A stretch of DNA of 22,652 nt from a virus (Duplodnaviria; Heunggongvirae; Uroviricota; Caudoviricetes). The position numbers were made by a program, and so were the translations under genes. A model generated the notes under the pieces. The model did not search any database. It worked only from the letters and a program-made list of their open reading frames with translations, and was not told the origin of the DNA. Below, piece after piece: positions 16,784-17,989 of this stretch. The DNA is taken from IMG/VR virus record IMGVR_UViG_2859827302_000003. One strand, given 5' to 3'. Numbering within the stretch: the stretch's first letter is position 1; every line of letters begins with the position of its first letter.

Positions 16784-17989
16784 GATTATTCTGAAATCCC
16801 GTGTAAACACCTCAGAAGTGGTGATGCGTACCAGGGCTGATGTAGTGACCGGAAATAACGGTGAATATTCGTTTGAGGCACAGGTCGGAAAATATTGCGT
16901 GTATCTGAAACGGGACTGGCGCGACGAGTACTGTGTTGGCGACATTGCTGTATACGACGACTCAAAGCCCGGCACGCTGAATGACTTTCTGACTGCCCCC
17001 GATGAAGGCGACCTGAAGCCGGATGTCGTCAAACGCTTTGAGGAAATGGTGGGCAGGCGCAGCAGAGCGCCGGGGCCGCAGCCGGAAACGCACAGCAGAC
17101 GGCGCAGGATGTGGCGGCAGCCGCAGGTTATGCCCGCGCAGCAGAACAGGCCAAAAATGACATTGATGCTGCGCTGACCGGCACTCTGAAAATGGCTAAC
17201 CATCTGTCAGAAATCGCAGCAGCAGGCGAAAAGGCACAACAGAAGTCCCGGGATAATCTGGGGCTGAAAAGTGCGGCCACGATGGAAGCACAGAGCGACA
17301 TTTACGACCGGACAAAAGGCCGTCTGGCGATACCCGGCGCATTCGGCTTTGGGTGTGCTTTTCTGCCTGAAGATGTTATCCGTTTTGACACTAAGAGTGA
17401 TTTCCTGGCCTGGGTAAGGAATGCGCTGCCAGGTGAATATTCCGTTGCTGGCCCCTACGACATCATCATACCCGACACACGGTTTGAAGGGGTGCTCAGC
17501 ATCCGGTGGACTGATGCACGCCCTGAGACAACAGAACCGCGGTACAGAGCCAAATCCCTTACTTTTTACGGCATTAACGGCCCCATTTATCACCCCCGCT
17601 ACTGCTACTGGCCCATATCCAGACTGACTGGCTGGGTGAAAATAAATATAACCACAGAAGATATTATTTACAGAATCGTGGCGAGCTCTGTCCGCAACAG
17701 ATGGGGAGACCCTGACATTGGCGGGCTGATTATTGCTCCGTACCAGGGAGAAGCTGACGGTGATAAAGTCATCAGACTTGTCAGGGGGCAGTCATACAGA
17801 GGCTCACGACTGGGACCGGTGGGGATTTCAGTGCCCAGTACTCCCACCGGAACGTATATAGCATCCCCACAATTTTTCATTACGGGATGTTCAGAGCATT
17901 CATTACCGGGGTCATATTGCGCCCTGTCCGGGGTGCCGGATGCACATGTCTCTGGCGCAATGCCCGGGCTTTTTATTCGCACATCGTGA
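16784..17989 (+). pseudogene. Phage side tail fibre gene remnant: 5' part removed by IS66 copy 3, internal frameshift
   Basis: Frame 0 is open from the IS junction to 17177, frame +2 from about 17051 to 17989; both translations look protein-like (Q/A-rich collar, C-terminal domain); the frames switch in the G-run around 17049-17054. Confidence 0.55.

Follow-up and report, generated by a model that had tools for sequence, protein, structure and literature searches.

A prophage tail-fibre gene in the ipaH3 island of Shigella dysenteriae with two lesions, an ISEc22 truncation and a one-base deletion

The window (the whole stretch of 22,652 nucleotides analysed here) contains an island located between yebY (1-342) and pphA (21717-22376). 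At least 11.5 of the 21.4 kb of the island (at least ~54%) is IS DNA, comprising three copies of ISEc22, two of IS1, an IS3-family element, pieces of IS600, an IS110-family element, and a fragment of a second IS66-family element. The island no longer has any capsid, tail, or lysis gene. The phage integrase is present on the minus strand as two fragments, a C-terminal catalytic piece and an N-terminal SAM-like piece (735-1289 and 2509-2937), split by an IS600 copy (1315 to ~2500). Also on the minus strand is a remnant of recE, encoding exodeoxyribonuclease VIII (8191-10131, 646 aa), which matches positions 1-596 of the 877 in the NCBIfam exonuclease VIII model; past model position 596 the sequence is unrelated and lies beside an IS600 end. 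The nuclease domain of RecE is C-terminal, and in this remnant it has probably been lost. The exact remnant protein occurs on 57 contigs, mostly from S. dysenteriae. An earlier sequence-only reading of this DNA had described the prophage as structurally dead. This holds, given the lack of any capsid or tail gene, the split integrase, the truncated recE, and the IS content. Upstream of recE there is an 81-aa open reading frame (ORF; 10308-10553, minus strand), which may be RacC-like; it adjoins the IS110-family transposase gene (10732-11907, plus strand, 391 aa, NF033542).

The feature of interest lies on the plus strand at 16784-17989. This segment is 98.5% identical in nucleotide sequence to, and colinear with, intact tail-fibre genes of 421-422 aa found in prophages of enteroinvasive Escherichia coli (EIEC). 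Frame 0 is open from the IS junction up to a stop at 17175-17177, while frame +2 is open from 17042, directly after an in-frame stop (17039-17041), to a stop at 17987-17989; the two open frames overlap only at 17042-17177. The upstream piece of the gene is read in frame 0 (16784..17052), begins at the third base of codon 21, ends after two bases of a broken GCG codon, and gives the product II LKSRVNT...KRFEEMV. It is colinear with the intact genes at 3939-5204 of locus L002 and 3938-5206 of locus L001. The downstream piece is read in frame +2 (17054..17989) and gives QAQQSAGAAAGN...GLFIRTS followed by the stop codon; according to both alignment and translation, it continues the intact homologues with no further stop or frame-changing indel. 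The switch between frame 0 and frame +2, with protein-like sequence on both sides, is thus as the sequence-only reading described it.

The frame-0 piece (16785-17051) matches the Pfam family PF08400 (phage_tail_N) over profile positions 22-110 of 134, with E = 3.7e-42 and a score of 144 bits against a gathering cut-off of 26.6; the intact homologue covers profile positions 1-131. The frame +2 piece has no match in the Pfam profile search. Since a single PF08400 domain is hit by both lesions, both fall within one domain of one gene. A member of the PF08400 fibre family has a complete single ORF with its own start codon, and the remnant has neither. Because codons 1-21 are absent and one nucleotide is deleted, it is a pseudogene of this family rather than a functional member. 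Putting the single missing C back restores 401 uninterrupted codons, from codon 22 to the native stop, which means that there is no third lesion in the remnant. The remnant is therefore one gene with two inactivating lesions, and the earlier claim of a double inactivation by IS truncation and frameshift proves accurate, exactly two lesions being found. The region is best annotated as one pseudogene instead of two small ORFs.

Among complete E. coli genomes searched by megablast, full-length matches to the remnant were found in ten, at 95.8-98.5% identity. In the two loci that were opened, the gene is a single annotated CDS with the product name 'prophage tail fiber N-terminal domain-containing protein': WP_490182047.1 of strain VL40 (L001, 422 aa) and WP_073848634.1 of FDAARGOS_944 (L002, 421 aa), with 96.2% and 98.5% nucleotide identity, respectively, over the whole remnant. 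Since the intact relatives are single CDSs of 421-422 aa, the window holds one gene and not two. In both loci, baseplate, fibre, and fibre-assembly genes precede the fibre gene, which is followed by a DUF4376 gene and then by a convergent ipaH, the same partners that lie downstream of the remnant in the window. Unlike the window copy, which lacks codons 1-21 and one C, the EIEC genes are complete, reside in prophages that retain baseplate genes, and occupy other chromosomal sites.

More distant relatives share only the N-terminal part of the gene. The N-terminus of lambda Stf and Rac-type side tail fibres belongs to the same PF08400 N-terminal domain family, and over its first ~300 nt the remnant shares 85-87% identity with the tail-fibre genes of phages Rac-SA53 and phiP27. 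The remainder of the protein is unrelated to the fibres of those phages at the DNA level, since only 25% of the query is covered; the label 'side' tail fibre may thus be applied to the remnant by analogy only. In the phage collection, only partial matches to the first ~300 nt were obtained, with no intact phage counterpart. When the window gene is repaired and compared with its closest intact homologue, dN/dS is 1.0 (15 differences, 10 of them amino-acid changes); compared with a second, more distant intact homologue it is 0.35. These values make relaxed constraint on the remnant plausible; for the closest pair they derive from 15 substitutions, and recombination among paralogues may have blurred them.

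The gene that follows the remnant contains DUF4376 (PF14301, E = 1.6e-16) and is an intact ORF of 207 aa on the plus strand (17940..18563), starting at ATG 17940 or alternatively at GTG 18000. The arrangement, with this ORF downstream of the fibre gene, is the same as in the intact EIEC loci. The exact protein is found on 735 contigs across Shigella and E. coli. From its position, the DUF4376 protein is presumed to be a fibre-assembly or chaperone partner of the fibre gene. Its intact state beside a dead fibre gene may reflect multi-copy homogenisation, chance, or function. At orthologous loci, the DUF4376 gene has a 1-nt deletion in a C-run in one (L008), and is mostly deleted in four.

On the opposite strand, convergent with the remnant, lies ipaH3 (18743..20458, minus strand), encoding a type III secretion effector and E3 ubiquitin ligase of 571 aa. 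Residues 1-571 of the window protein align to 1-571 of IpaH3 in PDB 3CVR (1263.8 bits), and the score against the NCBIfam model NF046045 (IpaH_Shig) is 563.8 bits, above its cut-off of 550. The called product is full-length, contains PF12468 and PF14496, with an N-terminal LRR domain and a C-terminal NEL domain, and keeps the catalytic Cys363 in its CEDR motif; NCBI names the protein IpaH3/Hc [Shigella dysenteriae]. That IpaH proteins encoded on the chromosome act as type III secretion effectors is established (Ashida 2007, as cited in PMC6424224).

A MxiE box, GTATCGTTTTTTTACAG (20578..20594, minus strand), is located 119 nt upstream of the ipaH3 ATG. It matches exactly the consensus GTATCGTTTTTTTANAG, which we take to be that of Mavris et al. 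2002, and it is the sole match in the window at up to 3 mismatches, where 0.17 would be expected by chance. The exact match means that the promoter element of ipaH3 that depends on type III secretion activity has survived. With the full alignment to 3CVR, a score above the IpaH_Shig cut-off, Cys363, and a perfect MxiE box, the earlier description of ipaH as intact is upheld. One of the IS1 copies (20846-21613) is only ~250 nt further upstream of the MxiE box.

The first of the two lesions is the junction with an IS element. The terminal repeat of the IS ends at 16783 (...GCTGTACGCTTAC) and homology to the fibre gene starts at the next base. The first 62 nt of the coding sequence, which in the intact gene read ATGTCTGTAGTGATATCAGG...GGATGCCA, are absent, as is everything upstream. 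Two probes for this 5' part, allowing up to 3 mismatches, found no match in the window.

The IS is the third copy of the IS66-family element ISEc22 (15163..16783, minus strand), which shares a 1623-nt perfect repeat with copies 1 and 2. It has the left inverted repeat as well as tnpA and tnpB, and 252 codons from the start of the transposase gene (tnpC). The fibre gene is truncated by the outer end of this copy. On the inner side the copy stops at 15163, inside the transposase gene, where it is cut by the second IS66-family element; the terminal repeat of that element (GTAAGCGTAAACTG...) lies at the cut, and its fragment encodes a 139-aa TnpA at 14658-15077. The assignment to ISEc22 is based on 99.7%-identical DNA annotated as such in RefSeq and on a match to the NCBIfam transpos_IS66 model. 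Copies 1 and 2 are complete, with ORFs of 133, 115, and 512 aa (tnpA, tnpB, and the DDE transposase tnpC), which is the gene content of the IS66 family, and the terminal inverted repeats start with GTAAGCG.

The three copies differ in their flanks. Copy 1 (5357-7797) represents a simple insertion, its target being an IS600, and is bounded on both sides by the 8-bp duplication GCTCCTTC, showing that ISEc22 does generate 8-bp duplications. In copy 2 (12173-14610) the left repeat is short of its first 3 nt, and no duplication flanks the element. Copy 3 has neither a target-site duplication beside the fibre gene nor a second end in the window. In the S. dysenteriae assembly CP026842.1 (locus L008) the corresponding copy is full-length, and its far end abuts the second IS66-family element and not GATTATTC with the fibre 5' end. 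Because copy 3 has no duplication and the far end of its counterpart lies at another IS, the original insertion must have been followed by one or more rearrangements or deletions mediated by IS elements. Copy 2 has the same right flank as the single full-length copy in CP026842.1, so an IS-mediated inversion has taken place here in the lineage of the window. The sequence-only reading had attributed removal of the 5' portion to IS66 copy 3, and this was indeed a truncation rather than a plain interruption, as there is no 8-bp duplication and no 5' fragment.

The second lesion became apparent at base resolution when both frame segments were aligned to intact fibre genes, as the sequence-only reading had proposed. 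A single 1-nt deletion is placed between 17052 and 17053 (position 332 of the reference gene), where one C is missing between two Gs: the intact genes have GGTGGCGCAGG and the window has GGTGGGCAGG, so that the codons ATG GTG GCG CAG GCG have become ATG GTG G-G CAG GCG. The earlier reading had placed the frame change at the motif ggtggg. The deletion does lie inside this motif, while the coordinates given for it were off by one, the motif really being at 17048-17053. Its view that the base was lost from a G-run does not stand: the lost base is a C with Gs on either side (GG-C-GC) and not a homopolymer G, and the GGG run arose through the deletion and hence is not its cause. Slippage in a homopolymer was rejected on the same ground.

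The orthologous locus was compared in further assemblies. Two of these, PSST01000003.1 (L007) and CP026842.1 (L008), encode an IpaH3 protein identical to that of the window, and ten more loci were retrieved via another allele of IpaH3, with 2 aa differences. The C is missing in the window and in L008; it is kept in L007, L010, L014, L015, L017, L018, and L019, as well as in the intact EIEC genes L001 and L002. A scan of genome contigs found five copies in two species-representative genomes, all of which keep the C, and gave no second example of the deletion.

Could the frameshift be an artefact of sequencing, or of the consensus of a long-read assembly, leaving a gene with the IS truncation only? 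The frameshifted products (117 aa, and 265 aa when started at ATG) are recorded on a single contig among 15 billion proteins, with CP026828.1 as its source, and the GTG-started ORFs of 292 aa and 119 aa have no exact-protein record. In addition, L008 contains split genes (rsmF, an MlaD-domain gene, and the DUF4376 gene), so the assemblies of the CP0268xx series may carry indel errors. Against this, CP026842.1 shares both the IS junction and the loss of the C with the window despite several SNPs, a full-length IS copy, an extra A at reference position 769, and no IS1 by pphA, and this recurrence in a second, different S. dysenteriae assembly makes a private consensus error unlikely. Six other orthologous loci in assemblies of the same accession series keep the C at the site. 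Residual long-read errors concentrate in homopolymers, and the lost base is a lone C outside any such run. Taken together, these comparisons make a sequencing error very unlikely, which largely answers the concern over one in the earlier reading. The reality of the deletion rests on one additional assembly, CP026842.1, which belongs to the same accession series and has several split genes itself. Near the island, these are rsmF, split into 333 + 148 aa, and the MlaD-domain gene; they could be real pseudogenes or assembly indel errors.

The order of the two lesions follows from PSST01000003.1. This assembly has the IS junction yet keeps the C, with a 400-codon open frame, and thus the truncation preceded the deletion. 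The deletion might serve as a lineage marker within S. dysenteriae.

Gene callers list products of 117 aa and 265 aa, which could suggest that each frame segment is a genuine gene in its own right. This is hardly credible: intact homologues have one ORF with 96-98.5% nucleotide identity across the junction, a single Pfam domain crosses the break, the last 42 residues of the 117-aa product are out of frame, the upstream piece has no native start, and no conserved two-gene arrangement with separate starts was seen among the homologues. The sequence-only reading had itself named two separate genes as a finding that would count against it, and the homologues gave no sign of them.

A programmed ribosomal frameshift, or a functional truncated fibre expressed from an outward-reading IS promoter, has an equally negligible standing. 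IS ends can carry outward promoters, and the long open frame of the IS-truncated gene in PSST01000003.1 could be taken to favour such a product. However, AAATGGTGGGC (17043-17056) contains no slippery heptamer of the form X XXY YYZ, and the other homologues examined are single-frame at the site, except for L008 with the same deletion. For expression, frame 0 offers no ATG, GTG, or TTG between the stop at 16755-16757, which is in the IS, and GTG 16818. A functional fibre is also hard to reconcile with the cut in the tail-attachment domain and with an island where no tail genes are left.

The preferred reading, to which we assign a probability of about 0.93, is that the segment is the remnant of a PF08400-type prophage tail-fibre gene in the S. 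dysenteriae ipaH3 island, killed by two successive events. In the first step, ISEc22 came to abut codon 21; this, together with at least one further IS-mediated rearrangement, removed the start codon, the ribosome-binding site, the promoter, and all upstream late genes. Later, one sub-lineage lost the single C at 17052/17053, shifting the frame inside the N-terminal domain and leading to the stop at 17175-17177. Neither lesion would have a functional role. The fibre gene would be undergoing neutral decay, with the neighbouring ipaH3 and the promoter element through which MxiE acts on it being retained.

The identity of the gene, both lesions to the base, their order, and the occurrence of the deletion in two assemblies are shown by the data; that the remnant is neutral and that ipaH3 is under purifying selection is what we infer. 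The sequence-only reading called the pattern consistent with selection for the effector only. In support of this, several independent lesions of the fibre gene occur beside an unchanged IpaH3. The sample is biased, since the comparison loci were chosen by exact IpaH3 protein identity, and this makes the decay of the fibre gene stand out too strongly against the conservation of ipaH3. It is nonetheless reasonable to infer selection for the effector only.

This is ordinary prophage decay, and features of this kind are already known. IS-driven pseudogenisation is a textbook mode of Shigella genome decay. The ipaH islands are characterised pathogenicity islands of Shigella (PMC4226921, PMC6424224), and effectors typically sit after tail-fibre genes at the ends of prophages (PMC3530523). 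As here, the Shigella ipaH islands have ipaH at the end of a phage-derived, IS-filled island without most phage genes. Nothing essential differs in the present case, which is the S. dysenteriae ipaH3 locus by pphA with its own IS insertions. The finding matters little on its own. It does provide a clean case, resolved to single bases, in which Shigella has held on to an effector brought in by a phage, together with its MxiE-controlled promoter, as IS elements and point indels took the phage apart. It also gives the order of events at one locus, where a widely shared IS junction came first and lineage-specific frameshifts followed.

The distribution of lesions among the orthologous ipaH3 loci does not fit a simple tree. 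The identical junction between IS and fibre gene is found in L007, L008, L010, L014, L017, and L018. Apart from the deletion at reference position 332, there is a deletion of C at 275 (L017), an insertion of A at 769 (L008, L010, L014, L015, L017, and L019), and a deletion of G at 1061 (L018 and L019), while the fibre gene is wholly lost, along with most of the DUF4376 gene, in L011, L012, L013, and L016. A 3-nt block of variants that is typical of a paralogous copy in EIEC is present in L007 and L018. All four combinations of the deletion at 332 and the insertion at 769 are present among the loci, which suggests that the several paralogous ipaH islands have undergone recombination or gene conversion with one another, or that mutations have recurred.

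It is tempting to speculate that the fibre and DUF4376 remnants of the different ipaH islands of one genome keep exchanging sequence through gene conversion and act as homology arms that shuffle or repair ipaH alleles from island to island. This suggestion is a tentative one and on balance doubtful; if true, the remnants would not be purely inert debris. Three further loci (L004-L006, from P0023) were set aside as paralogous ipaH islands at other chromosomal sites and are uninformative on the window locus. In L015 and L019, the same 1.6-kb fragment of ISEc22 is inverted against the fibre remnant (junction at ~7670 in locus coordinates), so that the fibre gene, shorter by another 7 bases, now borders on the breakpoint in the transposase gene, the same as that at 15163 in the window.
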